From positions 4,218,001 to 4,282,000 of the forward strand of contig CM097885.1 of NCBI GenBank assembly GCA_044892525.1: a stretch of 64,000 nt of DNA. Reading direction: 5' to 3'. This stretch comes from Schmidtea polychroa. Its lineage: Eukaryota. The notes under the pieces were generated by a model, which was not told the DNA's origin, did no database searches, and saw nothing but the letters and a program-made list of their open reading frames with translations. Both the position numbers and the translations under genes were made by a program. Position 1 is the stretch's first letter, and every line of letters begins with the position of its first letter. Positions 3,317-60,170 of the stretch are shown here, one piece after another.

Positions 3317-3332
3317 CCACTAGATGGCAGCA
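3317..3332 (+). promoter_or_regulatory. CTCF-like motif CCACTAGATGGCAGCA
   Basis: Close match to the CTCF core consensus, lying between the divergent ELP2 and ASCC1 starts. Motif match only. Confidence 0.3.
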
Positions 3333-4059
3333 TCATTGTTGTCTGTTAAGGGTATTTAGAGGTTTAATGAATAATTGAGCGTGGTTACGAAGGAAAACAA
3401 AATATAGTTAAAGCATTGACAGGGCAGGACGAGCCAAATTATGAAAGGTTTCCCCATTCGTAACCGACCAATTTTTTCTTGAAGCAGACAAATTTATAGA
3501 AAAAAATTTGACAAATAATTAAAGATATTGATAATGTAACTTTGATATTATTTTAAGCGTATTTTTATTATTTAGTATTATTATTATTAGAAGTTTGCGA
3601 ACTTTTATTGATGAAGTGGATGTTTTAGTATGCAAGGAACCGTAAAAGGATACAAGGACCGAACTGAATTCGACAACTCTTACAAAATCATAAAATTTCT
3701 GTTACTAAATCAAGTTTAAATCCAATCTCTAGATGGAAAAAAATAAAAGAATAAAATAAAGAATAAACTAATTGAATTTGAGAAAATTTTAAGAAACGAT
3801 GATTTTGTGGATTATTTAAGTACTCGATATGTCACTATATATTTATATATATATTATTTATTGTTAATAAAAGTTCTTTTAGAAATAAGTTTTATTCAAT
3901 TGATTATTTTTTAAACGAAAAAATTATTAAAAATAAATAATTATTACATTTTATTAAAAATGCCAACCGAACAAAGCTTTTCATATACTAATTTTGTTTA
4001 TACGAAGTTTATATTTACAATCAAATTTTTGAAATTAACGTAATTAATTTTAAATCATA

Positions 4060-4835
4060 ATGGATGTGATTAATCCTGGAATTACAGTTATTGGTAAAAG
4101 GTACTATAGAAACTGTTTAACTTCAACAAGTATGTTATTGAAATAGTTCAATTAGCTTCAATTAATCATTTGAATTTATTAGATAATGAAGAAATTACTA
4201 ATGAAGATTATATATATAATAAAAATTATGATGAAGACTATTGTGATTATGATGAAACGAATTCTTATTTCTTTATTAAAGAAGAAGGAAATAATTTTGT
4301 TACTCATTTGAAAGTGGCAACCATGTTTTATGGTTTTATAATCGGTAAAAAGGGTGAATGCAAAAAAAAGATTGAATGTGACACGAAAACCAATATTACT
4401 ATTCCTTATGAGGGTAAAACCGGACCAGTTGTGGTTAAAGGCAAAAGTTATGCATCTGTTGACAGAGCTGCATCTAGAATATGTGAGCTTGTTGAGTTAG
4501 GGCGCTATTTGACTCCCTTTACCCACTTTTTTTCTATTCCTGCAAATAATGAAATTATAACACAAAGCTTCGAAAAATTCAAATCTGAAGTGTTGCACTT
4601 TTGTCTAGGCGATCGTGGAATTGAAGATAGATTATTCCAAAAGCCTTATAAGTTACACTTGACATTATCTCTTGTCGTTATTGGTGATCACGATGAGTTG
4701 GATAGTTTATTAAAAATTTTCAACGAATTCAAGCAAAGCAATGAGGAATTATTTCGGGAATCATTGCGCGTTCATATCAAGGGATTGGAATATATGAATG
4801 ATGATCCATGCGAAGTGCGAGTTCTATATGGAAAG
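4060..4835 (+). CDS. ASCC1: Activating signal cointegrator 1 complex subunit 1, exons 1 (4060-4129) and 2 (4183-4835)
   Basis: N-terminus MDVINPGITVIGKRYYRN, a 53-nt phase-1 GT-AG intron, a KH domain (FYGFIIGKKG), PFTHFFSIP, the first 2H motif KLHLTL, and GLEYMNDDP..VRVLYGK followed by donor GTTGGA at 4836. Confidence 0.92.
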
Positions 4836-5232
4836 GTTGGACTTCATTTTTGATTTCAGATGATTTTATTCAGTAAAAATAATTTTTAATTATTTATATT
4901 CATTAAAAACAAAATGCAAAAGTATAATAGAAATTCGCTGGTTTATAATTTTAACATTTATTAATGACGAAATTGAAATCAATAAATTCTAAAAACTTAA
5001 TATATGACCTTGTAGAGAGTTTTATTCTGAGTCTAATAAGCTAGAGATATGACGAATATTTATCATTCCACGTGGGCTAGTATAGATTTTTAAAAATCAA
5101 TAATAATAATAATTATATATATATATGAAAACCTGAAAAATAAAGTGAAAGATAAAAATGAAAACTTGAAATTAGAAATTAGTTAATTAAAAATATACTA
5201 AATACAACTACAATCGATTATTTGATGAGAAT

Positions 5233-5560
5233 ACTGACAGGAATTGTTCGAGATATTAAAGAAAAATTGTATTACATTGATTTTGGACAAGAAGTGCAAA
5301 CTGCTGCTTTTTCATCGTTACTTGAAGAGTTATGAACTACCATATGATCAAGTTATTATCATTGGAAATGAAAGATTCGGATGCTCTTTGTTTTAGCAAT
5401 CATTCTTGTTCGAATTCATAGCATAATGAAATGCGATGTGAATATTCGTAAAGATTTATATAGCAATACCGTTTTATCAAGTGGTTTGACAATGTATCTA
5501 TACTATAGCTGATCGTATGCAAAAGCAAATTTCACCTTAAGCTCCAGCTTCAATGAGATT
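5233..5560 (+). pseudogene. Actin pseudogene fragment (central to C-terminal region)
   Basis: Frameshifted [45 protein letters not shown] and IADRMQKQI, with deletions and no introns. Confidence 0.85.
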
Positions 5561-6049
5561 TAATGAAATTCCCCTCTTCAGCCAATCACAACTTTCAGCT
5601 GTTGTGCACGGTTATAGAAGGAGAATATATTTTGAATTACCTCTTTATGATATATTCTGAAGCAAAACAACATGTACATTTTTATCGGAATTACAAACAT
5701 GCAATATTGATTCAATAAGTATATAAATAGCAACATACAATTCAGATGCAATAGACATACAAATTTTCATTGGATATACTAAATATGTAATAAGGTTTCA
5801 ATGCGAATGAAAATTTTGACTGAATGTACACGTGTAAATTGCTTACAAATATTCTTTTAATATTTACACGCAATTAACAGAAACAATATATAAATGCACT
5901 TAATATAATTCATCTATCATTCAACATTAATTTTCATTGATTTTAATACATGTAGCTCATGTGCAATAGTGTTAGGATTGATCTAGTTGATTGAATATAT
6001 TCACACATATTTCAGAAATGTAAACTATATATAATATCTACAAGCCCAA

Positions 6050-6950
6050 GAACTCAGTCACTTTTTTTGTAAGTCTTTATAAGGAATCTCTCATACATGT
6101 CTCCAGGGGTGTTGTCTAGTGTGAGATCGTCTAAGTCTTCAGTCAACAATTCCTGGTTTAGGTTCCTTTTCAAATCCCTATTGGCTGTTATTCTTAACTC
6201 TACTTGAGAATTTTGACTGAGCAAGTCCTGCATAGGTTCCCATGGGTGTCAGACTTATGTGAACTGTGCTTACAGATCGAGAATGAATAATCGAGTACTT
6301 GTTGACTGAGGTGGAATGTGGAGATCGAGAGTATATCATAATCCATATCATCAATGTAGTTTGTATAGGAATCAGAGACTCCCACTTCTTCATTTTCCTT
6401 TGAGATTCTAATTACATCATTTACGACAGAGTCATCTACCAGTTGCCTCAGCGACGTCCGTTAGTATGTTTACACCGCACATCCTCTTAATCTCGATGGA
6501 ACTGTTGCTATTCTGGCAGCAGCATAGATATTGTTGGGGAACTTAAGTAAAACATGTCTATTGCTGCTATTATTTTGGCGTATTCTGAGTTGTTGGATAA
6601 TCCTACTTAGAGTTTCGTATAGGATATGAAGTTCCCTATATCTACACTAAATGGTGGCGCCTTAAATATAGTCGTTATTGCATCGGAAACCTTCGAAACG
6701 TAGGCCCCAGAAATATCCCTTTCTCTCTGTATTGGATAGAGAACCCCCTGTTAAATCTTGCGTTAAATTTGCATCCAAATATTCCATCTCTAATAAGTCT
6801 ATTGGTGTTATTTTGTCGATGTCCCAAATCTCAATTTCGGCTTCTTGGCTTTGAGTCCAGCACTGGGATATGTGGCCTTGTCTTGAGTAGACTGATTATT
6901 AACCTTCAAGACCAATTGTTGCTTTGAAACATCTGAGATTAAATATAAAT
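6050..6950 (-). mobile_element. Possible decayed retroelement gag-like remnant
   Basis: GC-richer island with a degenerate zinc-knuckle-like stretch (SVYSRQGHISQCW) near 6860-6895. Weak. Confidence 0.2.
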
Positions 6951-7949
6951 TGTTCATGTTTTATAGAAAATATTAGATAGTTGTTCGGATTTTTTATCTG
7001 ACTTCAAAGATAAGCTTTCTAGCGTGTAGGTAATATAAATAAACTATGAATTAAATGAAAACTAAGACTGGTGTATTGATAAATATATACAACAATTACA
7101 ATGGTTTAATTTGTCACACCCAAAAATGCTGCCTTATCACTATAAAGATAGAAATCGGTTATTCGAACCGTTCTCGGATAAATATGTCAAATGCTGGGAC
7201 TGCTGGTTTATCACAGCGCTGATCTAAGGTGAAAGGAACAAGGAGTAAGATTCCCAAAATTTGCGCGATCCATTAGAACAAGTTTGTTTTAAGTTACCTA
7301 TTAGATTTCCTCTAAAAACTTGCTTCCAAACAAAAAAATCAACTGATACAGTTAGTATCTGTGGACGGGATTTTCAATTATTTAAAAACTTATTATTATG
7401 GTTTAATAATATGGTAGTTAACTTAAAAGTTAATTCCTTAAATTAATTGAAGAAACTCTGGTTAGCAAATCACTACTGAATTTTGTCAAATTTTACTGAC
7501 TTCAAGTATTCTATTTACACTGGAAATTTGAGAGCCAGCTGTTTTTGTTTCCACTTATAACATCAGCTGTTGACTTTATTACAACTTGAATTCACTCTGC
7601 AAACAATTGCTCAATGTCGTGAGTTTATTGTCGACCTTTTCTAAAATACTTTTTTAATTTATATTAAATTTCTACTATCTATTTATTATTTTTATAATTT
7701 TATATATAATTTTATAATATTTCTATTTATAGTAATTATTTATCTATTTATAGCATTTATTAATTCCTAATTTTAATTTTACTATAACTTAGCCTCTTAT
7801 GGCTACAACTATGATTTTAAGCTAACCCAACTCCAACAATAGACATAAGATGAAGATGCATAATTTATTTGGTCGCATTACATGACATCATAAATTCAAC
7901 ACTCTAGAAATATATAAATTCTTAAAAATTTTAAATGCTTAATGAGTTA

Positions 7950-8318
7950 AAGCGGATTCAGTACATTCCCTGGACCCAAACCCTCGCTTTATAAGGCCTT
8001 GCATTACAATTTAAAAATACACCATAGCTTCAACCGAACGTAGTTTGTCGTGGTTAAAATTAAATATGAATTACCTTTGATCTGCAATAGGTCAAAACCG
8101 TTTTACATCTCTAAATATTTTGTCTATTGAAAGTGAGGTAGCAAATTCCGTAAATTTTGATGATGTAATTAACGACTTTGCAGTGAAAAAGGCTAGAAAA
8201 ATTTTATAGTAATATTTTATGATCCTATATAATCTATTTATAATAAAACATTTAACTGTTTGTTTTTGCACTTGCGCAAATAATGTACCTGGATCCCAGA
8301 AAATTTACGCCGACCCTG
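7950..8318 (+). mobile_element. hAT transposon 3' remnant (dimerisation domain plus right TIR)
   Basis: 8021-8209 translates as TIASTERSLSWLKLNMNYL*SAIGQNRFTSLNILSIE...FDDVINDFAVKKARKIL*. The remnant ends in ...GCCGACCCTG at 8318, a CAGGG-type hAT terminus. Confidence 0.8.
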
Positions 8319-8599
8319 ACTAAAATGTTCAATGAGCAAAAACTACTTTTGAAAATATCTTCATAAATCTCTTGGATACACTAAATACTCTGCACTTCTA
8401 ATTAATACTGTAATGGAGTTAAAGTAGGTAGATAGTGGCTTACCGCAACAATTACCCCCCCCCCCCCCGGGTGGGGGGGGGGTGTTGCAACTTTTTTTTT
8501 GTTGCAACATTTTTTTTTGTTGCAACTTTTTATTACGCAATTGTTGCAACTCACATTTTTTGCTTTCAGGGATTTTTGGTCCAAATTTTTTTTTTATCA

Positions 8600-9360
8600 G
8601 ACTATAGTGAGGGGGTCTCGATGGTCCGGGGATTTTCTATACAAAAAAATTTTTTCAATACAAAAATCCGACTACCACTAAAAAGCATGGAATTTTCACA
8701 CTATAGTGAGGGGGTCTCGATGGTCCTGGGATTTTCAATACAAAAAAATTTTTTCAATACAAAAATCCGACTACCACTAAAAAGCATGGAATTTTCACAC
8801 TATAGTGAGGGGGTCTCGTTGGTCCTGGGATTTTCAATACAAAAAAATTTTTTCAATACAAAAATCCGACTACCACTAAAAAAGCATGGAATTTTCACAC
8901 TATAGTGAGGGGGTCTCGATGGTCCTGGGATTTTCAATACAAAAATCCGACTACCACTAAAAAAGCATGGTAATTTAAGGTCTCAGGATATTTTCAATAC
9001 AAAAATCCGACTACCACTAAAAAGCATGGAATTTTCTAGGTCAATTCAGGTGGGACTCCTTGGTCCTGAGAATTTCAATAGCAAAAGGTGGTCTTCAATA
9101 AAAAAGAGTGGTAATTTAAGGTCTCAGGATATTTTCAATACAAAAAGGCGGTCTACACTAAAAAAGAGTGGTAATTTAAGGTCTCAGGATATTTTCAATA
9201 GAAAAAGGCGGTCTTCAATAAAAAAGAGTGGTAATTTAAGGTCTCAGGATATTTTCAATACAAAAATCCGATTATCAATAAAAAAGCATGGATTTTTCTA
9301 GGCCAATTAATGCGGGTCTCCTTGGTCCTGAGAAAAAGGTGGTCTACACTAAAAAAGCGT
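8600..9360 (+). repeat. Subterminal tandem repeats (about 105-bp and 60-bp units) of the left arm
   Basis: Recurrent CACTATAGTGAGGGGGTCTCGATGGTCC and TTTTCAATACAAAAATCCGACTACCACTAAAAA. Mirrored at about 23540-24190 with different copy numbers. Confidence 0.9.
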
Positions 9361-9379
9361 GGTAAATTTTTAAAATAAA

Positions 9380-10260
9380 GTAAATAATGGTTCTAAAAAT
9401 TAAAGTAAATTATGGTTCTAAAAATTAAATTAAAGTAAATAATGGTCCAAATTTTTCAATTAAAGTAAATTATGGGTCTAAAAAATTAAATTAAAGTAAA
9501 TAATGGTCCAAATTTTTGAATTACAGTAAATAATGGTTCTAAAAATTGAATTACAGTAAATAATGGTTCTAAAAAAAAATTAAATTACAGTAAATTATGG
9601 TTCTAAAAAATTAAATTAAAGTTAATTAAGGTCCAAATTTTTCAATTACAGTAAATTATGGTTCTAAAAAATTAAATTACAGTAAATTATGGTTCTAAAA
9701 AATTAAATTACAGTAAATTAAGGTTCAAATTTTTCAATTAAAGTAAATTATGGTCCAAATTTTTGAATTACAGTAAATAATGGTCAAAATTTTTGAATTA
9801 CGGTAAATAATGGTTCTAAAAATTGAATTAAAGTAAATTATGGTTCTAAAAATTAAATTACAGTAAATAATGGTCCAAATTTTTCAATTACAGTTAATTA
9901 TGGTTCTAAAAAAATTAAATTAAAGTAAATTAAGGTTCAAATTTTTGAATTACAGTAAATAATGGTCCAAATTTTTGAATTACAGTAAATAATGGTCCAA
10001 ATTTTTCAATTACAGTTAATTATGGTTCTAAAAAATTAAATTAAAGTAAATTAAGGTTCAAATTTTTCAATTAAAGTAAATAATGGTCCAAATTTTTTAA
10101 TTAAAGTAAATTATGGTTCAAATTTTTAAATTAAAGTAATGAATGGGCTCAAATAACTAAATTAAGGTTCTAAAAAATTAAATTAAAGTTAATTAAGGTC
10201 CAAATTTTAAAATTAAGTAATCAATGGTCAAAAATTTAAATTAAAGTTAAATAAGTAAAT
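9380..10260 (+). repeat. Minisatellite of about 28-30 bp (AATTACAGTAAATAATGGTTCTAAAA-like)
   Basis: Many tandem variants, mirrored at about 22920-23530. Confidence 0.9.
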
Positions 10261-10499
10261 TAAAGTAATAATTTTTAAATAAGTAATGTAATAAGTAAAT
10301 TAAAGTAAGATTTTAAAATTTATTAACAAAAAGTTGAAATAATAGAAGGTGTTTGAGAATTGAAATTTTTTAATGAAAATTTTTATGAAATAATTTTTTA
10401 AGTAATTTTTAATAGAAATTTTTATGGAATAATTTTTTAAGATAATTTTTAATGGAAATTTTTATGAAATATTTTTCAAAGACAAATTTTAATAATAAT

Positions 10500-11195
10500 T
10501 CAACAACAAACCAACAACTTAGTACCAACAACCAGTAACTTATGAACATGTATTAACAATCAGATACCTACAACTAGTTACTAACAACCTGCTACCAAAT
10601 ACTTTCAACATGATACCACGTACTAAATAACTCTCAAACAACCAGATACTTACAACCAATTACCAGATACCAAGTACCTACAACTAGTTACTAACAACTA
10701 GTTACCTGATACTAAGTACCTACAACCATCTAACAAGTATTAACAACCAAAAACAAGCAACCAACTAGGTACCAAGTACTAACAACCGACAACAACTAAC
10801 TACCACCTACCAAGTACCTACAACCACATACTAACAACTAGGTACTAGATACCAAGTACATACAACCAACATCAACCTGTTACTAAGCATTATTAACCAT
10901 CTACCAAGTACATACAACCAATTACTAAGTACCTACAACCATCTACCAAGTACATACAACCAAGTACTAAGTACCTACAACCGACTAGCTACCACCTACC
11001 AAGTACCACCAACAACGAGATACCTACAACTAGATACTAACAACTAGCTACCACCTACCAAGTACCAACAATCAACTAACAACCAGGTACTAAGCATTAT
11101 CAACTAACAACCAGGTACTAAGCATTATCAACCAACTACTAACAACTAGATACTAAGCACTGTCAACTAGATACCAAGTACTAACAACCAGATGA
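10500..11195 (+). repeat. A/C-rich strand-biased repeat array (TACCAAGTACTAACAAC variants)
   Basis: Mirrored as a longer G/T-rich array at about 21720-22595. Confidence 0.85.
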
Positions 11196-11698
11196 CCACG
11201 TGAAATTATTAGTTAAATAGGTAAAATAATGTTTAATTTTAAAATTAAGTAATCAATGGTCTAAAATATTAAAGTTAGAGTCAATTTAAGATGAAAGTTT
11301 TCTGGGATTTTCAATGTTAATTTTAGATGCAAATCTTCGTCAATTAATCAATGACCACATGAAATTATTAGTTAAATATGAAAATAAGGGTTATAATTAG
11401 TTGTTTAGTAAATTATGGTGTAAAATTAAGAAATAAAGAATAATTAGGTAAATTAAGGATAAATTAAGGAAAATTAAGGTTCAAAATTTAAAATTAAGTA
11501 ACCAATGGTTCAAATTTTAAATTAAAGCTAAATAAGTAAATTAAAGTAAGATTTTTAAATTTATTATCAAAAGATTGAATAACTACCAACTTTTTTTGAG
11601 AAATGTAATTTTTAATGAAAATTTAAATGGAAATTTTTTTTTTAAGTTAATTTTAAATGTAAAATTTTTTAAGTTAATTTTTAATGGAAATTTTAATG

Positions 11699-11699
<1 letters not shown>

Positions 11700-11756
<57 letters not shown>

Positions 11757-11757
11757 T
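11700..11757 (+). repeat. (AAT)n microsatellite
   Basis: Pure AAT run, mirrored as (ATT)n at about 21134-21187. Confidence 0.95.
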
Positions 11758-12195
11758 CAACAGTTCCCAACAATCGGTTACTAAATATTTTTAACTAGAT
11801 GCTAACAAATACTTTGAACATGATACCACGTACTAACTAACTCTCAAACAACCAGATACCTACAACTAGTTACTAACAACCAACTAAGTATTCTTTATTG
11901 TATTTTATGAAATGTTTTTAAATTAATTTTTTATCTGTCTTTAAAAATATGTTTAATTACAATCAATAGAAAACCTTTTCAAAATGTCTAAATTTAACAA
12001 ACATGTTGACTTTCATCAAAAAACCACAACTCAATCACTTTAAAACACCACGTGAAATTCAAAATAATTTAAATTACAATGAAATACTAATGAATTCTAA
12101 TTTACAAAAACATCTTCTTTTAAATGATAACTTATTATTGCATCGTAAAATCACATTCAATAAATACTTATTGTTGATCAGTTTTATTATATATA

Positions 12196-15100
12196 CTCTG
12201 AGTTTATCCGACAGGATGTTTTGACCCCCTAAGGGTACAGGTCGTAAGGGTACTGGTCGTAAGGGTATTAGTCGTAAAGGTACTAGTCGTAAGGATATTG
12301 CTAACTCTCAACCTCCACCTACCCATTAACTAGCTACTAAGTACTAACAACCAGTTACCTGATACCATGTACTTACAACCACCATCAACCAGATACTAAG
12401 CATTATTAACCTACAATTATATAACAACAATCAGTAAACAACACTCTACCAACTATTAAATACAAGATACCAACAACTAGATACCAACAATCAACTAACC
12501 ACACATAAAAATAATAGCAATTAAATACAAAATATTCTTCATCACATACACTATCTTCTTATCAAAATCTAAAAAGTCAATCAGATACCAACTACCAACT
12601 ACCAAGTACTAACAACCAACTACCTACAACCAACAACTATGTACTAACAAATTGATCTTTAAAAGAAAAATACTCATCACTTGAAAAATTAGATGGAAAA
12701 TTAATTGAACTCAAGACATCAATAACTTGGTAAAAATTGATTAAATAATTGCAAAAATTTAAATTTACTCAAAATAAATATCATAAAAATTTAATTAATA
12801 GACAAGAAAGAATTCTATTCATTAATCATCCAGTAAATAAAAAAAATACTGATCATTCAAGTTGAATCAACTAAGATAAGATTTAGTAGATAATTGATTT
12901 AGATTGAATAAATTAATTGAAATAAAATTAATTTTAATTATTTTTTTTTAAAAATAATACATGTACTCAAATTGATTGACTGAATGCTCAAAATATTCAA
13001 AAATCAGTATAAATTCATTAAAATTATCAATGTCATCAATCTACAATAAAAATAATTATCATTAAATTCCAAAAGAGACTAGAAAACTAACAAACCAGAA
13101 AATTCATTCAAATGACAATAATTGGTATATTCAAGCGAATTCTCTAATAAAATCATCTAAAAAGAATCATTTCGCCTGAAATATCTCTATTTTTAAAGAT
13201 TAGTATCTTATCGATAAGTACTTGTTAAATATCATATATTCACCTCAAACTAACAAGATTCCTTAAAATCCCTTAAATGACTATATTTCTACCCTTAATC
13301 AATATTATTACAAATAATTCAATAAAATCATCTAAAAAGCATCAAATTTCCCAAAAATAACTCTATCTTTAAAGGTTAGTATTTTATCGATAAATATCCT
13401 TAAAAGGTTATATATTTACCTCAGACTAATAAGATTGCTTAAAATCCCCTTTAAATGACTATAATTCTAACTTTAATTCGTATTATCACAAATATTTCCC
13501 TATAAAACAGGTAAAATCATTAACTAAATAATTTATAAAATCTAATGATAAAACCGGTTATAATTAAATTTTTGTTAATCACTGTACTCGAAATTTAAAA
13601 TAAATATTGCTTGAAATTTGACTGTACAATATAACTGAGTAGTTGCATAGAAAGATTAAATTTATCCATATTTCTTCAAATGATCATTTTTACCGATATC
13701 CAACCGATTTAATTACTAATTAAAATCACCCGATAGATTTCTCCCAATAAAGATCAATTTTCTTTAGTCGACGTTTTAAATCAATATTTCCAACTTTTGT
13801 CGTTGTCCGTCTAAATAAAGATAAAAAATAATTTAAAGTTGATATCAATCCCAATTATCTGTAAAGTTTTCATTGTCAAAACCAAGTAAATAGATTATCC
13901 CTACTTAATAAAACATTGTTCTAAAACATAAATCTAAATTAATTTACTGTGCATTAATCACAACCTAATAAAACAATATAATTATTATTGATTCATAACT
14001 AATGTATTGCAATTTCCCTTAAAACATTGATATTTTACCAACATCATCCTTAAAAGATCATATATTCCCATCTTAACCCATCCTTCATTAAATTCAATCG
14101 AATATATCTCCCTTACAATGATATATTCCTACCTTATCCGATCTCTCATTAAATCTAACCAACTATATCTCCCTTAAAAGATCATATTTTCCCATCTTAA
14201 CCGATCTCTCATTAAAGTCAATCGACTATATCTCCCTTACAATGATATATTCCCATCTTAACCCATCCCTCATTAAATTTAACCAACTATATCCCCTCAA
14301 AAGATCATATTTTCACACCTTATCCGATCTCTCATTAAATCTAACCGACAATATCCCATCTTATCCGATCTCTCACCAAATATTTCTACCCTTTTAAACA
14401 TCTAACCGAATATATCCTTCAATTCTATCCACTTGAATCCTCCTTTAATTCACTCAATCCTCTTAAAATCCTTAGAGAACTTCAAAAATATGACTTAATT
14501 GTTACAGACACCAAATATTCTTCCATTGAAATAATTTAGTAGCTATGTAGTAAGAGTTCACTAAAAGATCAAAAATCAATATTTTCTACAAATATTCACC
14601 ATCAAATACCTAACTGGAGATAATACATATATTAATTGATGATAATTCTTCAGCTATTCAACCAATCATTTTCAAGCAGTAACAGCAAACTAAATTTCTG
14701 TATATCCTACAATAATTATCAAGTAAATTTAAAGTCCTTGATAAGGTTAACTGTTTCTTAGCTTATGTTTTTTAAAGTTCATCAAAGTGTAAATATTCTT
14801 AGAAAAATATTGAAAAATTATTTATTCAAATACATTACAAAGTTATCATCAAAAATCACTTAATTATTAACCTAATTGTCAATGAAATTAATTTTTATTT
14901 AAAAACTATTCAATAAAATACAACTAATTATCAAGAAATTAATTAAATTTATCAGTCAACATGAAATTCTTAGAAAATTATTCAATATCCCCATAAAAAT
15001 TTATCCACTTGATTATTGTAAAAACTCTAATTATTAACATTGAAAATAAATTTTATTTAAAATTAAAAAACCAATCAATAAAAATACATTCAATTATCAA

Positions 15101-15508
15101 GAAATTAATTAAATTTACCTTAGAATTAGCATTAAATTACAGAAATTCACAAAAATAATGGAAATTCACAAAAATGATAAAAATTCACAAAAATAATAGA
15201 AATTCATGAAAATGATAGATATCCACGAAAAATTACGGAAATTCATGAAAATATTAGAAATTCACAAAAAATGATGGAAATTCATGAAAATGATAGAAAT
15301 TCATAAAAATGATAGAAATTTACTTGAATAAAACCATCAACTCTAAAAATTATCAATGCCTTAAACAACAAATTTGTCTAAATAATCATTCAAATAAAAG
15401 CATTAAATACCTTTACGACTAATACACTTACGACATGTTGAATGTGAGTAGTACCCTTGTGAGCAATACCCATAGGGGGACAGAATATTTTTTCGGATAA
15501 ACTCAGAG
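12196..15508. mobile_element. Nested inverted-repeat-bounded unit within the left arm
   Basis: TATA|CTCTGAGTTTATCCGA at 12196 and TCGGATAAACTCAGAG|TATA ending at 15508. An imperfect IR of about 110 bp carries GTCGTAAGGGTA repeats. Confidence 0.55.
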
Positions 15509-16109
15509 TATATATTAATTAACTCATTCAAATTTATCATTGAATCAGTAAATTATCATAAATTTCGATAAAAATTCTAAAGTGGTAAGCAATTGTAGGA
15601 TAAAAAGAGAAATATTCTTTAAACTTTGATAAAAATGAAGGTGGTAAGAATCTTCATTAAAGTGAGGAAATTATTCATTACTCGATGATAAATTCAAATG
15701 GGTGAAAATAATTGATAGAATAATTCATTAATGGATCATTGAATGGGCATAGATAAGATGAAGGTTGATAAGAATGCAAATATATTAATTGAATTTATTT
15801 AAAATTATTTCATAAAATTCATAAAAAAAAAAACTTTTAAAAGAAATATTTGTGGAGATGTTTTAGGTGAAAATTAATCAAAATCGGCGGAATATAATTG
15901 ATTAAATATCGAGGATGGGGGTTATAATTAATGGAAAATCAATGGGATACAAATGATTAAATAGTGGAAAATTCGGGAATATAAGTGATTAATTAATGGA
16001 ATATTGAGAATCGGAGGAATATCAATGAGAAGGATATATAATTTAAACTAGTTTATTACATAACAAGCCGCGACTAGTTTATTACATAACAAGCCGTGAA
16101 TGATAATTT

Positions 16110-16235
16110 ATTGAGAATTATTGATTAGATCTTTTTTTTAATTTTTGACTAAAATAAATTCTAAAATAATAGCAAATTATTACTAAAATGTTTTAATTTG
16201 CATTATGTATTTCAAAAACAATGATCATAAAAGAT

Positions 16236-16283
<48 letters not shown>

Positions 16284-17175
16284 CCCTTTTCATTCAAAAT
16301 AAGTTAAATATTCAAATATAAGTCTTAGAAAATACAATCAAAATTAAATTTTAAAAATATAAATTTTATAAGTTTTTCAAATTCTCGAATAATGTAAATA
16401 AGAAATTAATCTATTACCAGTTACATACTTTTAAACTTATTGATGGAATAAAACATTAGAAATAAAGTGTTTTTTTTGTATAAGTACTTGTAATAATAGC
16501 TATATATTATTAAATTTACTATTCTACACTAAATATTTTGAAAACAAATATCATAATATGAATTATATTACTCCTTTCAATCAAAGTAAATTAAATGTAT
16601 CATTCAAATACAATTAAAATTAAATCATCAATTTAATACTTTAATTTAAAAATAAAAAATTTATATGTAAATGCGAATAAGTGTATTAACAGTTCTAAAC
16701 TTTTTAAACTTATTGATTAGGCAGTAGAAAGTAACTTTTTTTTCAAAAAGTCCTTTAATATTGTATTCTATTTATTATCAAATTAACTATTTTACACTAA
16801 AATATTTCAATTTAGAAAAAAAAAATCATAATATTGAATGTGATACTTCAATCAAAATAAGTTAATACTCAAATATATGTCTTATAAAGTACAATCAAAA
16901 TTAAATACTTCACTAAATTTTAAGTAAAGTTTTTTAAATTCTCTGGTAAATGTTAACAAGATATTAATTTATTAATCATTATAGACTTTTTATACTTATT
17001 ATCGGAATTAAACAATAGAATGATTTTCAAAATATGTACAATTTAAAAATAAAATTAAAATTAAATTACATACTTTAAAAATGTTGGTAAAATACCATTC
17101 ACAGCTTGATATTCAAAATATGTACAATTTAAAAATAAAATTAAAATTAAATTACATACTTTAAAAATGTTGGTA
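16110..17175. repeat. Central spacer of the palindrome
   Basis: Contains (TA)n at about 16240-16281, three degenerate units of about 285 bp starting near 16285, 16572 and 16846, and a duplication of about 85 bp (about 17024-17190). Confidence 0.7.
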
Positions 17176-17657
17176 AAATACCATTCACACCTTGTTATGT
17201 AATAATTTAAATTACATATACTTCTCACTTATATTCCCCCAATTTTTAAATATTCCATTATTTAATCACTTATATCCCCCCCCCCAATTTTCCATTAATT
17301 ATTCCCCTCAGATATTTCTTTTAAGATTTTTTTTATTAAATTTATGAATTTTATGAAATAATTTTAAATAAATTCAATTAATATATTTGCATTCTTATCA
17401 ACCTTCATCTTATCTATGCCCATTCAATGATCCATTAATGAATTATTCTATCAATTATTTTCACCCATTTGAATTTATCATCGAGTAATGAATAATTTCC
17501 TCACTTTAATGAAGATTCTTACCACCTTCATTTTTATCAAAGTTTAAAGAATATTTCTCTTTTTATCCTACAATTGCTTACCACTTTAGAATTTTTATCG
17601 AAATTTATGATAATTTTACTGATTCAATGAAAATTTGAATGAGTTAATTAATATATA

Positions 17658-20600
17658 CTCTGAGTTTATCCGAAAAAATATTCTGTCCCCCCTATGGGTA
17701 TTGCTCACAAGGGTACTACTCACATGCAACATGTCGTAAGTGTATTAGTCGTAAAGGTATTTAATGCCTTTATTTGAATGATTATTTAGACAAATTTGTT
17801 GTTTAAGGTATTGATAATTTTTAGAGTTGATGGTTTTATTAAATATTCAAGTAAATTTCTAACATTTTTGTGAATTTCCATCATTTTTTGTAATTTTCTA
17901 TTATTTTCATGAATTTCCGTACTTTTTTGTGAATATCAGTAATTTTTGTGGATTTCTAACATTTTTGTGAATTTCTTTGATTTTTATAAATTTCTATTAT
18001 TTTTGTGGATTTCTAACATTTTGGCAAATTTTATGTTTATTGAATGAATATTTAAAAATTTAGAGTTAGTTCTAAGATAAATTTAATTAATTTCTTGATA
18101 ATTTTAAATAAAAATTTATTTTTAATGAGGTTAATAATTAGAGTTTGTACAATAATCAAGTGATAGGATAAATTTTGATGAGGATATTGAATATTTTTCT
18201 AAGAATTTCATGTTGACTGATTAAAAGTTTTAATGATGATAAATTTAATTGATAAATTTAATTAATTTCTTGATAATTAGTTGTATTTTTTTGAATAGTT
18301 TTTAAATTTTAAATTAATTTCATTGACAATTAGGTTAATAATTAAGTGATAGAATAAATTTTTGATGATAACTTTGTAATATATTTGACTAAATAATTTT
18401 TTTCAATAATTTTCTAAGAATATTTACTCATTGATGAACTTTAAAAAACATAAGCTAAGAAACCAGTTAACTTTATCAATGACTTTAAATTTACTTGATA
18501 ATTATTGTAGGATATACTGAAATTTAGTTTGCTGTTATTGCTTGAAAATGATTGGCTGAATCGATGAAGAATTAAGATAAATCAATATATATCATCTCCA
18601 GTTAGGTATTTGATGGGTGAAATAATTGTAGAAAATATTGATTTTTGATCTTTTAGTGAACTCTTACTACATAGCTACTAAATTATTTCAATGGAAGAAT
18701 ATTTGATGTCTTTAACAGTTTATGAAAAGTCATATTTTTGAAGTTCTCTAAGGATATTAAGAGGATTGATATATATTAAAGGGCTCAAGTGGGTGGAATC
18801 TTTAAGGAAATTAAGGGATATAATCGGATAGATGTTTAAAAGGGTAGAAATATTTGCTGAGAGATCGGATAAGATGGGATATTGTCGGTTAAATTTAATG
18901 AAAGATCGGATAAGGTGGAAATATATCATTGTAAGGGAGATATAGTCGATTGAATTTAATTAAGGATGGGTTAAGATGGGAATATATCATTGTAAGGGAA
19001 ATGTTGGTAAAATATCAATGTTTTAAGGGAAATGTCAATACATTAGTCAGTTATGAATCAATAATAATTATATCGTTTTATTAGGTTGTGATTAATGCAC
19101 AGTAAATTAATTTAGAACAATGTTTTATTAAGTAGGGATAATGATCGATTTACTTGGTTTTGACAATGAAATCTTTACAGATAATTGGGATTGATATCAA
19201 CTTTAAATTATTTTTATCTTTATTTAGACGGACAACGACAAAAGTTGACCATTTGAAGAAAGTTATTTTATTGAATGGATAAATTTAATCTTTCAATGGG
19301 ACCTAGTCAGTTATATTTATTTTAAATTTCGAGTACAGTGATTTACAAAAATTACAGTGATTAACAAAAATTTTATTATAACCGGTTTTATCATTAGTGA
19401 AATATGTATGATAATAGGAATTAAAGTTAGAATTATAGTCATTTAAAGGGGATTTTAAGCAATCTTATTAATCTGAGGGGAATATATGACCTTTTACGGG
19501 TACTTATCGATAAGATACCAATCTTTAAAGATAGAGGTATTTCAGGGATATTTGATGCTTTTTAGATGATTTTAATGAATTATTTGTAATAATATGAATT
19601 AAGGGTAGAAATATAGTCATTTAAGGGATTTTAAGGAATCTTGTTAGTTTGAGGTGAATATATGATCTTTAACAAGTACTTATCGATAAGATACCAATCT
19701 TTAAATATTGATATATTTAAGGGAAATGATTCTTTTTAGATGATTTTATTAGAGAATTCACTTGGATATACCAATTATTATCATTTGAATGAATTTACTG
19801 GTTTGTTAGTTTTCTAGTCTCTTGGAATTTTATGATAATTATTTTTATTGTAGATTGATGACTTTGATAATTGTAATGAATTTATACTGATTTTTGAATA
19901 TATTGAGCAATCAGTCAATCAATTTGAGTACATGTATTACTTTTAAAAAAAAATAATTAAAATTAATTTTATTTCAATTAATTTATTCAATCTAAATCAA
20001 TTATCTATTAGATCTTATCTTATTAATTTATTAACTTAGTTGATTCAACTTGAATGATCAGTATTTTTTTTATTTACTGGATGATTAATGAATAGAATTC
20101 TTTCTTGTCTATTAATTAAATTTTTATGATATTTATTTTGAGTAAATTTAAATTTTTGCAATTATTTAATCAATTTTTACCAAGTTATTGATGTCTTGAG
20201 TTCAATTAATTTTCCATCTAATTTTTCAAGTGATGAGTATTTTTCTTTTAAAGATCAATTTGTTAGTACATAGTTGTTGGTTGTAGGTAGTTGGTTGTTA
20301 GTACTTGGTAGTTGGTAGTTGGTATCTGATTGACTTTTTAGATTTTGATAAGAAGATAGTGTATGTGATGAAGAATATTTTGTATTTAATTGCTATTATT
20401 TTTATGTGTGGTTAGTTGATTGTTGGTACTTGGTATCTTGTATTTGGTAGCTGGTACAGTGTTGTTATATAGTTGTAGGTTGATAATGCTTAGTAGCTGG
20501 TTGTTGTGGGTTGTAAGTGTTTAGTATTTAGTTGTTTGAGACCTGGTTGTTAGTACATGGTAGTTAATTAATGAGTAGGTGGTGGTTGAGTGTTACCAAT

Positions 20601-20686
20601 AGCCTTACGACCAGTACCTTTACGACTAATACCCTTACGACCAGTACCCTTAGGGGGTCAAAACATCCTGTCGGATAAACTCAGAG
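17658..20686. mobile_element. Mirror copy of the nested IR-bounded unit in the right arm
   Basis: Same CTCTGAGTTTATCCGA ends flanked by TATA. Confidence 0.55.
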
Positions 20687-21133
20687 TATATATAATAAAA
20701 CTGATCAACAATAAGTATTTATTGAATGTGATTTTTACTTTGCAATAATAAGTCAGTAGTTATCATTTAAAAGAAGATGTTTTTGTAAATTAGAATTCAT
20801 TAGTATTTCATTGTAATTTAAATTATTTTGAATTTCACGTGGTGTTTTAAAGTGATTGAGTTGTGGATTTTTGATGAAAGTCAACATGTTTGTTAAATTT
20901 AGACATTTTGAAAAGGTTTTCTATTGATTGTAATTAAACATATTTTTAAAGACAGATAAAAAATTAATTTAAAAACATTTCATAAAATACAATAAAGAAT
21001 ACTTAGTTGGTTGTTAGTAACTAGTTGTAGGTATCTGGTTGTTTGAGAGTTAGTTAGTACGTGGTATCATGTTCAAAGTATTTGTTAGCATCTAGTTAAA
21101 AATATTTAGTAACCGATTGTTGGGAACTGTTGA

Positions 21134-21188
<55 letters not shown>

Positions 21189-24100
21189 CATTAAAATTTC
21201 CATTAAAAAATTAACTTAAAAAATTATTTCATTAAAATTAACTTAAAAAATTTTACATTTAAAAATGACTTAAAAAAAATTTCCATTTAAATTTTCATTA
21301 AAAATTACATTTCTCAAAAAAGTTGGTGGTTATTCAATCTTTTGATAATAAATTTAAAAATCTTACTTTAATTTACTTATTTAGCTTGATTTTAATATTT
21401 GAACCATTGGTTACTTAATTTTAAATTTTGAACCTTAATTTTCCTTAATTTATCCTTAATTTACCTAATTATTCTTTATTTCTTAATTTTACACCATAAT
21501 TTACTAAACAACTAATTATAACCCTTATTTTCATATTTAACTAATAATTTCATGTGGTCATTGATTAATTGACGAAGATTTGCATCTAAAATTAACATTG
21601 GAAATCCCAGAAAATCTTCATCTTAAATTAACTTTAACTTTAATATTTTAGACCATTGATTACTTAATTTAAAAATTAGACATTAATTTACTTATTTAAC
21701 CAATAATTTCATGTGGTCATCTGGTTGTAAGTACTAGGTATCTAGTTGTTATTACTTGGTTGATGATGCTTAGTACCTGGTTGTTGACGGCTGTGAGTAG
21801 TAGGTATCTGGTAACTAGTTGTTAGTATCTAGTTGTAGGTATCTCGTTGTTGGTGGTACTTGGTAGGTGGTAGCTAGTCGGTTGTAGGTACTTAGTACTT
21901 GGTTGTATGTACTTGGTAGATGGTTGTAGGTACTTAGTAATTGGTAATTAATGATTAGTACCTGGTTGTTGTTGGTTGTTAGTACTTGGTATCTAGTACC
22001 TAGTTGGTTGATAGTACTTAGTAACTAGTTAATGGGTAGGTGGTTGTAGGTACTTGGTAGGTGGTTAATAATGCTTAGTAACAGGTTGATGTTGGTTGTA
22101 TGTACTTGGTATCTAGTACCTAGTTGTTAGTATGTGGTTGTAGGTACTTGGTATCTGGTAATTGGTTGTAACTAGTTAATGGGTAGGTGGCAGCTAGTTG
22201 GTAGGTGGTTGTAGCTAGTTAATAGGTAGGTGGTTGTAGGTACTTGGTAGGTGGTAGTTAGTTGTTAGCTGGTTGTTGTCGGTTGTTAGTACTTGGTACC
22301 TAGTTGGTTGCTTGTTTTTGGTTGTTAGTACTTGTTAGATGGTTGTAGGTACTTAGTATCAGGTAACTAGTTGTTAGTAACTAGGTGTAGGTACTTGGTA
22401 TCTGGTAATTGGTTGTAAGTATCTGGTTGTTTGAGAGTTATTTAGTACGTGGTATCATGTTGAAAGTATTTGGTAGCAGGTAACTGATTGTAAGTACTTG
22501 GTAGCAGGTTGTTAGTAACTAGTTGTAGGTATCTGATTGTTAATACATGTTCATAAGTTACTGGTTGTTGGTACTAAGTTGTTGGTTTGTTGTTGAATTA
22601 TTATTAAAATTTGTCTTTGAAAAATATTTCATAGAAATTTTCATTAAAAATTATCTTAAAAATTTCCATCTAAAATTATCATTGAAAAATTTTTCATAAA
22701 AATTTCCATTAAAAATTAACTTAAAAAATTATTCCATAAAAATTTCTATTAAAAATTACTTAAAAAATTATTTCATAAAAATTTTCATTAAAAAATTTCA
22801 ATTCTCAAACACCTTCTATTATTTCAACTTTTTGTTAATAAATTTTAAAATCTTACTTTAATTTACTTATTACATTACTTATTTAAAAATTATTACTTTA
22901 ATTTACTTATTTAACTTTAATTTAAAATTTGTGACCATTGATTACTTAATTTTAAAATTTGGACCTTAATTAACTTTAATTGAAAAATTTGGACCATTAT
23001 TTACTTTAATTGAAAAATTTGAACCTTAATTTACTTTAATTTAATTTTTTTAGAACCATAATTAACTGTAATTGAAAAATTTGGACCATTATTTACTGTA
23101 ATTTAATTTTTAAGAACCATAATTTACTGTAATTTAATTTTTTAGAACCATAATTTACTGTAATTCAATTTTTAGAACCATTATTTACTGTAATTCAAAA
23201 ATTTGGACCATTATTTACTGTAATTCAAAAATTTGGACCATAATTTACTTTAATTGAAAAAATTGAACCTTAATTTACTTTAATTTAATTTTTTTAGAAC
23301 CATAATTAACTGTAATTGAAAAATTTGGACCATTATTTACTGTAATTTAATTTTTAAGAACCATAATTTACTGTAATTTAATTTTTAAGAACCATAATTT
23401 ACTGTAATTTAATTTTTTAGAACCATTATTTACTGTAATTCAAAAATTTGGACCATTATTTACTGTAATTCAAAAATTTGAACCATAATTTACTGTAATT
23501 TAATTTTTAGACCCATTATTTACTTTATTTTAAAAATTTACCACGCTTTTTTAGTGTAGACCACCTTTTTCTATTGAAATTCTCAGGACCAAGGAGACCC
23601 GCATTAATTTACTTTGAAAATTCCATGCTTTTTTAGTGATAATCAGATTTTTGTATTGAAAATATCCTGAGACCATCGAGACCCCCTCACTATAGTGTGA
23701 AAAAACCATGCTTTTTTATTGAAGACCGCCTTTTTGTATTGAAAAAATTTTTTTGTATTGAAAATCCCAGGACCATCGTTTTTGTATAGAAAAAATTTTT
23801 TTGTATTGAAAATCCCAGGACCATCGTTTTTGTATAGAAAAAATTTTTTTGTATTGAAAATTCCAGGACCATCGTTTTTGTATAGAAAAAATTTTTTTGT
23901 ATTGAAAATTCCAGGACCATCGTTTTTGTATTGAAAAATTTTTTTTGTATTGAAAATCCCAGGACCAAGGAGACTCACCTCACTATAGTCTGAAAAATCC
24001 TTGGCTTTTTTAGTGTAGACCACCTATTTGTATTGAAAAATTTTTTTTGTATTGAAAATCCCAGGACCATCGAGACCCCCTCACTATAGTGTGAAAATTC

Positions 24101-27100
24101 CATGCTTTTTTAGTGGTAGTCGGATTTTTGTATTGAAAAAATTTTTTTGTATAGAAAATCCCCGGACCATCGAGACCCCCTCACTATAGTCTGATAAAAA
24201 AAAAATTTGGACCAAAAATCCCTGAAAGCAAAAAATGTGAGTTGCAACAATTGCGTAATAAAAAGTTGCAACAAAAAAAAAGTTGCAACAACCCCCCCCC
24301 CCCCCCCCCGGGGGGGGGTGATTGTTGCGGTAAGCCACTATCTACCTACTAGTTAACTTGAAGGACAAGTGACTATTTGAACAATTGATTCGGCTTTACA
24401 ACAATTATTAGCTCTATTTTCTTTATTTTCACTTTATTCATTATTTTGGTTATCAATGATGATTTCCGCTGTAAATTTGTCTTTTATCATGCTTGTGATT
24501 TGCCTGTTTTTAGCTCCTTTGACAGGACTCTCTCGCATCACTCATTCTTTCAAATTAGATTATCAAATTTCAAGAAACCAAAGAATCTGAACAAAATTAA
24601 ATTATTTTATATCAATTTGACAAGCTGCTAATATAATTAAATTGATTTATTTATATCAATTAATTAATTAATTTGTATTTTTTAATTAACATTGTTCAGG
24701 AACCATTTATTGATTTAAAATGAAAAAAATTCATAATTATTTATTACAGTTTACACGAATTTGCGCAACACCAACAATCTCTAAAAATTTGTAAAATATA
24801 CTGAAAAATTTCGTGAAAACAGAATAATTTCCGGAATTTCGATTTTTCCAATAAATTTGTATAAAAATTTTATGTTTTAAATTTGTGCCAAAATATTTAA
24901 ATAGCACAAATATCCTTCAAATATTCCAAAGTTTTTCAATATGTTGAGGTTGAAACTTTATTACTATGCAAACTTGAATTGAAATATGTCTACTTTTTAT
25001 ATTATCAATAACTAATTTTTGACTGACTTTCTCATCCTGTGTTATCTCAAATTTCTTATCAAATTACAACTGGTTAATTTTAAAATTTGAAAAATTATAT
25101 GTTAACTTAATTATTGATGTGCAATTGCATTGTGCGATTCTATTATGATATTAAAGCTTTTGTTGGAATAAATCTAACCAAAACCAAAGCAACCTCACCA
25201 AATTGACTTAAACTCAATTTCACATAAATGTAACTTACAAGTTAAACACCAGTATGTTGGCGAGCACATGAACGAATAAAACAGTATTGAACTGGAATTG
25301 TTCTAGCAAGATCACTTTCATGATAAAATTGTTGAGGATGCCTAAATAGTGATATTGTAAATAATTAGAATAACTATGGGAAAACCGATAGGGTGATTGT
25401 GATAACATTCTGAAACTTGGAGATGAAAAAAGAAAGGAAAAAATTGAGAAATGAGCTCCTGTATAGCGGAGTGCAGACGAACGATTTTTGGGGAGTAGGA
25501 GACTTGTTAACAACTCAAGCATTGGAGAAAACAAATGACTAATGTTTCAAGTTGCCAATAGCAGCTGAAGAAATATGTGGAATCTGAATGCAACAAGGAA
25601 GCCACTCTACTCTAGAAGATATAGATGCAGTGCGATGAGTATACTTGGAAATCAAAGATGAATAGGAGGATGATATTCCTGTCATTGAAGTACCAATACA
25701 AAAATACTGTTCTCTAAAAGATTATAGAAAAGGCAACTTCCAATTAACCAAGAAACCGGGAAAGGAAAACTCCAATTTCCCAAAATTAAAACAATTAATT
25801 GGGATAATTGTATTGTCAAGGAAATGTCGAATATTCCAGACAATCAAGCCTAATTAATACCTCACGAACCGAACAAAATAAAAATTAGCGGTGGATAAAA
25901 AGAAAATTATGCCAAGAAAATGAAACTCAAAAAAAGAACACTGGAAAAGTGTTAAAGGGATAAAATAATATTGAGTACAGCAAAATATCTAAATAGGTTT
26001 TGTTATTAATATAAATAATTATAGATAATTTGTTCGAGACATATGTAAATCACTTTAATACAATTAACTTAATGAATAATAATTATTTTTCAAATATTTC
26101 CTCACTTGAAAAATGTCTTGTTTTGTTGTGACCCAGCTGTCACTTTAATAATAAGTAAAAAGATTATAAATTTCAAAGACCAATTTTGAAACGAACAATT
26201 AGATTTCAGGATGAAATCCAATCAAAAAATAACGTTGCTTATGTTCAGAAAGATAAATTTAGAGAGAAAATTGAGAAAGATGAATAAAATATTGATGATG
26301 TTATAAGAAGCAGAGTACTATGCTTATTGCTAAGGCTAGAAAATTAGTAACAGAACCTGACGCAAACTCTCAGAAATAGACAGAACTATTGATGAAGCTA
26401 ACGAAAATACCGTTATTAAAACTGTTATTAAACTTGGTGCAGAATGTTATGCAGCAAGTGTGGAAAAGCGAAAGGTATTCGAAAACTTTATGAAATAATT
26501 TGGCCAATCTCTACGAAAAATTAAATGGTTAGACCCAATATTCATCAAAGCAGATGCATCAGACGATGCTTGAGGCTCCCATGATAAATTATCATAACCG
26601 CCTGCAGCGCTGGCTTAACCAGTGGATATGATAACTTTGGGTATGTTAAATACCTAGGGTTAGTGGTGAAACGAATGTGATAAATCAAATATATGGGGAG
26701 AATAAGAATAGAATAAAATACAAAATATATTCATTAAAACAGAATATTACGTATTGGTGGTATCATTATTTGTATAATTGTTATAACTATTATAGGAAAA
26801 TAAAATAAATTTGTTATCACATTAAGAATTATTATTATCATTATGTATATTATTATCATTATCATTATTGTCATTAGTATTATAAGTATTAATAATAATA
26901 ATATTATTATTATTATTAATTATTATTACTTATTATTTATTTAATATTAATAATTAAAATTAACAAACAACAAAAGATACTTTGAAACTGTCAAATTTCA
27001 ATTATTATCAAAAATCATATCTATTTCCATTGATCGTACAAATTTCTAATAAATCGAACGCAACTGAGTTTAACACATAAGTAACATTTATCTTTTTCTT

Positions 27101-58689: not shown

Positions 58690-60170
<1,481 letters not shown>

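Follow-up and report, generated by a model that had tools for sequence, protein, structure and literature searches.

Polintons (also named Mavericks) are reportedly self-synthesising, virus-like transposons, a description said to go back to Kapitonov and Jurka in 2006 and to Pritham et al. in 2007. Typical features of these elements are set out in a part of PMC3014272. The locus considered here lies in a window of 64,000 nucleotides from Schmidtea polychroa (positions 4,218,001 to 4,282,000 of contig CM097885.1, assembly GCA_044892525.1), i.e., the whole stretch of DNA that was analyzed. At window positions 8423-24350 it harbors a gene-less palindrome of 15,928 bp, referred to as W. Like Polintons, W has 5'-AG...CT-3' ends, long terminal inverted repeats (TIRs) and a 6-bp target-site duplication (TSD), and it has a gene-carrying partner in the same genome. 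Unlike typical Polintons, W is devoid of genes and its "TIRs" are about 7 kb each, which is roughly 90% of the element. As discussed below, W is probably a non-autonomous Polinton in the form of a long-armed inverted dimer that was mobilized in trans by a helper.

The very long inverted arms composed largely of tandem repeats and the small or absent coding capacity are also features of foldback (FB-type) transposons. However, the termini and subterminal repeats of W are those of a Polinton, its partner encodes a protein-primed polymerase (pPolB) and an integrase instead of a DDE cut-and-paste transposase, and the TSD is 6 bp, while FB transposons make a 9-bp TSD.

Another related system is that of adenovirus vectors, where the likeness concerns protein-primed linear double-stranded DNA, a double-jelly-roll (DJR) capsid and helper-dependent gene-less genomes. 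Here, half-size molecules are found as inverted dimers near wild-type length, and left-end subgenomic DNA in incomplete adenovirus particles offers a further comparison (both from PMC4189039, which cites Parks and Graham 1997 and Daniell 1976). These dimers are laboratory vectors in virions, whereas the copies described below are integrated, flanked by TSDs and number in the hundreds or thousands; particles of them were not observed. Copy-back (also named snap-back) defective genomes carry one end of the genome twice, as inverted copies on either side of a short unique turn, which is the arrangement also seen in two elements of this genome (G and K, see below); dependence on a helper would be a second likeness. 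The W family differs from copy-back genomes in that its arms are diverged and consist mostly of filler without detectable homology to the helper. The full-text literature searched, which does not extend to Repbase Reports and most subscription journals, yielded no account of non-autonomous Polintons with a palindromic, snap-back or inverted-dimer structure, so that an earlier description may exist. Nor are such elements described in the relevant passages of PMC6431247, PMC3014272, PMC11414722 and bioRxiv 10.64898/2025.12.11.693146.

The window element and its autonomous partner

Both ends of W carry the 30-nt terminus AGTAGGTAGATAGTGGCTTACCGCAACAAT, which is exact in each case and inverted on the right (0 matches in 100 shuffles), and the element is flanked by a perfect direct duplication of AGTTAA. 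Comparison of W with its own reverse complement, using BLAST and a repeat finder, placed the left arm at element positions 1-7427; the right arm is 7,039 nt long, and a non-palindromic centre of 1.1-1.5 kb separates the two. Symmetric inverted matches cover 89% of W. Identity between the arms is 81-91% in the long blocks and complete in patches of 430, 276 and 175 nt. The GC content is 25% and the coverage by Tandem Repeats Finder is 42%.

Among the 15 stop-to-stop open reading frames (ORFs) of at least 70 aa in W, nine were scanned and gave no Pfam match (0/9); the element contains 0 Rfam families and 0 tRNAs. A tblastn search of W with all helper ORFs returned only two spurious ORFs inside the terminal satellite. 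In neither this search nor the Pfam scan of nine ORFs was pPolB found, and the rve integrase was found in the partner but not in W. W is thus a non-autonomous member of the Polinton/Maverick superfamily, classified by its ends and TSD rather than by genes. Because only the ends and subterminal repeats of the helper are retained, and none of its genes, W presumably moved in trans.

The assembly comprises 781 Mb with four very large contigs. Allowing up to three mismatches, the terminus was found 501 times in the forward and 514 times in the reverse orientation, i.e., 1,015 times, while the reversed control gave 0 matches. The first 100 matches listed contained 32 convergent pairs no more than 40 kb apart. 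Most of these pairs (26) span 15.0-17.7 kb, three are shorter (5.0, 9.0 and 10.5 kb) and three are longer (18.4, 20.4 and 36.6 kb); 14 of the 26 pairs of about 16 kb were classified. Perfect 6-bp TSDs of unrelated sequence flank W and all seven other complete copies that were retrieved (8/8), and a 6-bp TSD was found for 14 of the 15 complete pairs examined. A TTAA duplication (piggyBac/Kolobok-like) inside AGTTAA was considered and rejected, as TSDs of other copies include ACTTGA, CAATAT and TATAGG. Subfamilies with variant termini retain the AGTAGG start. Two right termini of such a subfamily, at C1:95655 and C1:112071, are 16.4 kb apart and have an identical 12-nt flank, which suggests that an element was duplicated in tandem together with its flank.

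Three of the seven additional terminus pairs (referred to as B, E and F) carry genes. They are 16.3-16.9 kb long, with the 30-nt terminus of W (0-2 mismatches at the ends of B), perfect 6-bp TSDs and TIRs of 1.3-2.0 kb. A long ORF of 1,357 aa matches pPolB (PF03175, 6e-33) when the central 451 aa are used; hmmscan with the whole protein missed this family. In a genome-wide search for pPolB, all 91 scored matches (the best 91 of 8,820 first-look candidates) were above the cut-off. Other ORFs of the partner match the rve integrase (PF00665, 8.8e-9, 36.0 bits, cut-off 32.6), the Pox_A32 ATPase (3.7e-7, 30.3 bits, cut-off 22.8) and Peptidase_C5, an adenain-like protease (2.3e-5, 24.6 bits, cut-off 21.3); an ORF adjoining that of rve has weak rve_3 and chromo matches. 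Pfam returned nothing for ORFs of 408, 338 and 344 aa, even at E-values up to 10. For the 408-aa ORF, an AlphaFold model based on 28 sequences (pLDDT, the predicted local distance difference test, 89.2) matches DJR capsid proteins of SGIV (an iridovirus), PBCV-1, mavirus and Sputnik in Foldseek, with E of about 1e-16 to 1e-12 and template-modelling scores of 0.5-0.64, and an Atlas lead pointed to DJR-like_dom clusters. On the strength of this model, the ORF is predicted to be the DJR major capsid protein. The capsid module of the partner then consists of the DJR capsid protein, the A32 ATPase and the adenain-like protease; a minor capsid protein was not identified. A 30-mer from the capsid gene has 293 matches in the genome. 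B, E and F are genuine Polintons/Mavericks with the ends of W.

These data bear out much of what the first-pass annotation had proposed for this locus, i.e., that inverted 30-nt ends and an AGTTAA TSD are present (both exact), that long palindrome arms surround a spacer (about 7.0-7.4 kb and 1.1-1.5 kb, respectively, by self-comparison), that the element has no recognizable genes (no Pfam match in nine ORFs, no Rfam or tRNA match), that the genome also contains autonomous elements with these termini and with genes for pPolB, an integrase and a major capsid protein, and that other copies have 6-bp TSDs (14/15, W included).

A few additional properties of the coding copies were noted. At positions 5804-6316 (+) of the retrieved sequence, copy E (C1:53395740-53412069) has an ORF of 171 aa in which a TATA-binding-protein domain was recognized (PF00352, 5.4e-16, 58.7 bits, cut-off 22.9), and ORFs of 171 aa are found also in B and F. 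Another ORF of E, of 128 aa at positions 4642-5025 (-), resembles the core protein mu of adenovirus (Adeno_PX; 27.6 bits, cut-off 25) over 19 residues only; it may encode a basic DNA-condensing core protein or be a mere low-complexity match. In all three coding copies the integrase is split over two adjacent ORFs, of 140-172 aa (rve) and 207 aa, about 24 nt apart (3435-4499 (-) of the retrieved sequence in E, and likewise in B and F), which suggests a short intron or a shared break.

The gene-less family, independent dimers and an empty site

W aligns with B, E and F only over element positions 1-2071 and 14174-15928 and in short stretches of satellite. The central part of W is widespread in the genome: 1.8 kb around its centre recur over their full length at about 30 other loci (40 of 1,941 candidates were scored), where 27 matches span query positions 1-1799/1801 at 82-89% identity, and partial matches reach up to 96%. 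Four further copies that were examined have this centre midway between two termini, and three of the four have perfect TSDs (ATCAAT, TACCTA and ATTGAT). A 30-mer taken from the arm has 3,351 matches in the genome as compared to 293 for the capsid-gene marker, i.e., the gene-less family outnumbers the coding copies. If each arm marker represents roughly 8 kb, these copies would make up about 3% of the 781-Mb genome. The arm markers exceed the 1,015 termini because a subfamily with variant termini (4-6 mismatches) carries the arms of W; an element of this subfamily measures 15,394 bp and has the TSD ACCGAA. Among the first 100 exact matches of the arm marker listed, 24 convergent pairs were found, of which 17 are spaced by 7.5-9.5 kb (8.4 kb in W) and one by 19.3 kb.

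A comparison over the full length was made for two W-type copies, W itself and J (16,486 bp, TSD ATCAAT). The two are collinear at 87-95% identity and have the same architecture; the arms of J are 94-98.7% alike. In two arm blocks of these elements, the patterns of informative sites favor a grouping across elements (13 versus 4 and 4, and 15 versus 10 and 0), and therefore the arms diverged before W and J separated. The partner arm changes along the element, which, together with the exact patches in W, suggests that exchange between arms may have occurred.

Two variations on the arm and centre sequences were observed elsewhere. At C1:25667467-25693245 copies of the arm marker follow one another at intervals that alternate between about 1.77 and 4.9 kb, and part of the arm sequence thus occurs as a tandem array as well. 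A 17.2-kb terminus pair at C3:45933083-45950312 has two inverted centre markers about 3.6-3.9 kb from each end and may be a second-order palindrome.

Inverted dimers with arms that can be assigned to a parent were also found. Element G (4,959 bp, TSD TATATT) is a clean snap-back with two arms, 99.2% alike, that each correspond to helper positions 194-2136 and take in the C-terminal 232-261 codons of pPolB. At the turn, the alignments of the two arms share about 94 nt, and the 30-mer at this junction has no second match in the genome. Head-to-head pairs account for ten of the 91 scored pPolB matches, and two of these pairs have variant termini at symmetric distances, which define elements of 15,994 bp (TSD AATATG) and 15,493 bp (TSD ATCAGT). 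The former, referred to as K, has arms of 7.7 kb that are 99.6% alike around a centre of about 570 bp of TIR-type satellite. Each arm has an open pPolB frame of 1,331 aa and none of the other Polinton genes. K is an inverted dimer of a half-length, polymerase-only derivative. In G and K the arms are seen to be inverted copies of one end of a parent, while in W derivation from the parent is seen in the outer ~2 kb only. Inverted dimerization is thus recurrent in this Polinton population, and its products integrate normally. Head-to-head pPolB pairs were seen also at C1:139680126/139687007 (gap 5.7 kb) and C1:264967225/264968853 (gap 0.45 kb); around a pair at C1:235384712/235393695, no termini were found in two 1.3-kb windows examined.

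The left flank of W was found in six public runs from two studies, four of which (X1-X4, all assembled contigs) were compared with window positions 7400-25400. In two runs from one study (X1 and X2), a 593-nt contig is composed of 264 nt that align with 8153-8416 and 329 nt that align with 24351-24679, with nothing between. The depth of this contig, about 75, equals that of the flanking contigs. It is an empty site with one AGTTAA, as the first-pass annotation had anticipated. In two runs from the other study (X3 and X4), contigs cross both junctions (8153-8451 and 24323-25303) and the flanks are identical to the window. A few positions of the flanks deviate from the window in X1 and X2, and these runs therefore represent another strain. 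The existence of the empty site then implies that W was inserted as one 15.9-kb unit after the strain lineages split; the alternative, precise excision, is not expected for Polinton-type elements. The insertion of W is recent and polymorphic.

Proposed origin and replication, and possible packaging

In the mechanism proposed here, the protein-primed polymerase of the helper would replicate W from the conserved ends, which harbor four GTTGCAAC octamers and a C/G hairpin, and the rve integrase of the helper would insert W upon a 6-bp staggered cut of the target. The octamers are found also at the ends of autonomous copies and are candidate protein-binding sites. The palindrome may have originated from a strand switch (copy-back) or from head-to-head joining of a half-length replicating molecule. 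As sister copies elsewhere share both the arms and the centre, the palindrome formed before the family was amplified. The displaced single strand could fold back on itself and rebuild a duplex origin, which may favor replication. The lack of genes points to helper dependence of W. By analogy with adenovirus, a total length near that of the helper could also allow W to enter the helper capsid.

The latter point is that of a size selection by packaging, which is plausible, if tentative. Adenovirus is a relative in its mode of replication and the fold of its capsid protein. According to PMC4189039, helper-dependent adenovirus genomes below ~27 kb (about 75% of wild type) rearrange, and a 15-kb vector was packaged as direct and inverted dimers. 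The gene-less palindromes examined here are 15.4-17.2 kb and K is 16.0 kb, as compared to 16.3-16.9 kb for the helpers. It is possible, albeit somewhat doubtful, that Polintons of this genome still pass through a capsid with a length rule and that the helper-length dimers are satellite or defective genomes that are spread by virions.

Several observations weigh against the inverted-dimer and packaging account. About 5.4 kb of each W arm has no detectable homology to the helper, yet it is common to the gene-less copies D, H and I. The origin of this filler could not be traced and no certain monomer ancestor was identified, copy H (9.0 kb) being merely a candidate. With an arm identity of only 81-91% and a centre of 1.1-1.5 kb, W is not a fresh snap-back product. 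The fourth sister copy with a central centre sequence (C3:57438004-57453701) has no TSD, and its 30-nt flanks are exact reverse complements, such that the palindrome runs into host DNA; this locus may reflect a genuine inverted duplication or else an error of assembly. With regard to length, TSD-flanked derivatives of 5.0, 9.0 and 10.5 kb exist, and six of the 24 arm-marker pairs are spaced by only 3.4-4.9 kb; full length is therefore not required for integration. The likeness in length within the family may be mere inheritance, since most copies of ~16 kb share descent. No particle, extrachromosomal form or terminal protein was observed, and the contig data are silent on free forms and expression. 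The earlier suggestion of a snap-back parasite that was integrated as a unit in trans is supported, and inverted-dimer derivatives of the coding element do exist (G and K). It needs two corrections: 5.4 kb of each arm is without detectable helper homology, and W is not a one-off but belongs to a large amplified palindromic family with arms that diverged before insertion of this copy.

Some of these points are shared by an alternative in which W did move in trans, but where the near-helper length is unrelated to capsids and was inherited from one ancestor that spread in the nucleus only. This scenario is conceivable without being the expected one. Most of the gene-less ~16-kb copies examined are one collinear family, and both the TSD-flanked copies of 5.0, 9.0 and 10.5 kb and the second palindrome class, with arm markers 3.4-4.9 kb apart in 6/24 pairs, are as expected if length is independent of a capsid. 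Furthermore, according to PMC8097293, no Maverick particle has been observed. Against this scenario, an independent dimer, K, with pPolB in both arms and another terminus variant, is also 15,994 bp, and a further pPolB element with both termini and a TSD is 15,493 bp. The junction of the 5-kb element G occurs once in the genome as compared to 111 matches for the centre of the ~16-kb family, and the helper has genes for a capsid protein and for a packaging ATPase, which likewise argues against a capsid-independent reading. A separate question is whether the palindrome arose by host end joining or recombination of two half-length molecules, or of inverted chromosomal copies, rather than by copy-back. 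The long centres of W (1.1-1.5 kb) and K (about 570 bp) resemble truncated monomers joined tail to tail more than a tight hairpin, but both arms of G extend to helper position 2136, with an overlap of about 94 nt that fits a short-range strand switch, and all dimers examined keep two good termini and a TSD, which shows that they formed before integration. Overall, such an origin by host repair is rather unlikely, although for the W family the data do not separate copy-back from joining.

Two further alternatives concern the identity of W as such. A foldback-type transposon of an unrelated superfamily, Polinton-like at the tips only, would have the long TIRs of tandem repeats and the gene-less body that are typical of foldback elements. 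Yet the 30-nt termini of W, together with about 2 kb of subterminal sequence, are common to elements that encode pPolB, an integrase and a capsid protein, and the 6-bp TSD recurs in 14 of the 15 complete pairs, so that this identity is highly improbable. That W is an assembly artefact, or an inverted duplication that formed in place after insertion, is brought to mind by the sister locus on C3 with its inverted flanks, whether these are an artefact or a real local duplication. The flanks of W are direct, the contigs of X3 and X4 cross both of its junctions while X1 and X2 display the exact empty site, and sister copies elsewhere have the same architecture with different TSDs; an explanation of this kind can hardly be upheld.

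With W regarded as a probable helper-mobilized inverted dimer, the locus indicates that Polintons can spawn hugely successful non-autonomous parasites. Gene-less and polymerase-only dimers with normal TSDs, polymorphic between strains and with several independent structures at helper length, constitute a natural experiment, and the packaging question becomes testable in this genome. If a capsid length rule applies, the lengths of the integrated copies would be a fossil read-out of capsid capacity and provide a first handle on animal Maverick virions. Spread by capsids would then have let the dimers outnumber their helper and occupy a few percent of the genome. In standard repeat annotation, such copies would probably end up as satellites or foldback repeats.

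Feature coordinates and neighboring sequence

Table 1. Features of W and its immediate borders, in window coordinates
Feature	Position	Strand	Remarks
Left TSD, AGTTAA	8417-8422		Single copy in the empty allele, where the contig joins 8416 to 24351
Left 30-nt terminus (5'-AG...)	8423-8452	+	Same as in autonomous Polintons
Subterminal satellite region	8423-10493	+	Units of 99-100, 60 and 30 bp; sole part common to autonomous TIRs
Palindrome left arm	8423-15849	+	Element 1-7427
Subterminal C14-GGGT-G10 run	8455-8482		Hairpin-forming; length differs among copies
Four palindromic octamers GTTGCAAC	8484-8550		At 8484, 8501, 8519 and 8543
Arm-internal filler	10494-15849	+	Common to other gene-less copies; autonomous elements match only small satellite bits
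Arm marker 30-mer	12208-12237		3,351 genome matches
Non-palindromic centre	15850-17311		Contains (AT)21 and a tandem repeat of 86 bp
Single-copy centre marker 30-mer	16709-16738		111 genome matches
Palindrome right arm	17312-24350	-	
Right 30-nt terminus (...CT-3')	24321-24350	-	
Right TSD, AGTTAA	24351-24356		

Outside the element, two host-like ORFs are found near the insertion, one with WD40 repeats at window positions 6-1130 (-) and one with KH and AKAP7 2'5'-RNA-ligase-like domains at 4170-4850 (+). Further downstream, at window positions 59001-60000, about 1 kb has a GC fraction of 0.006, i.e., it is practically pure A+T.

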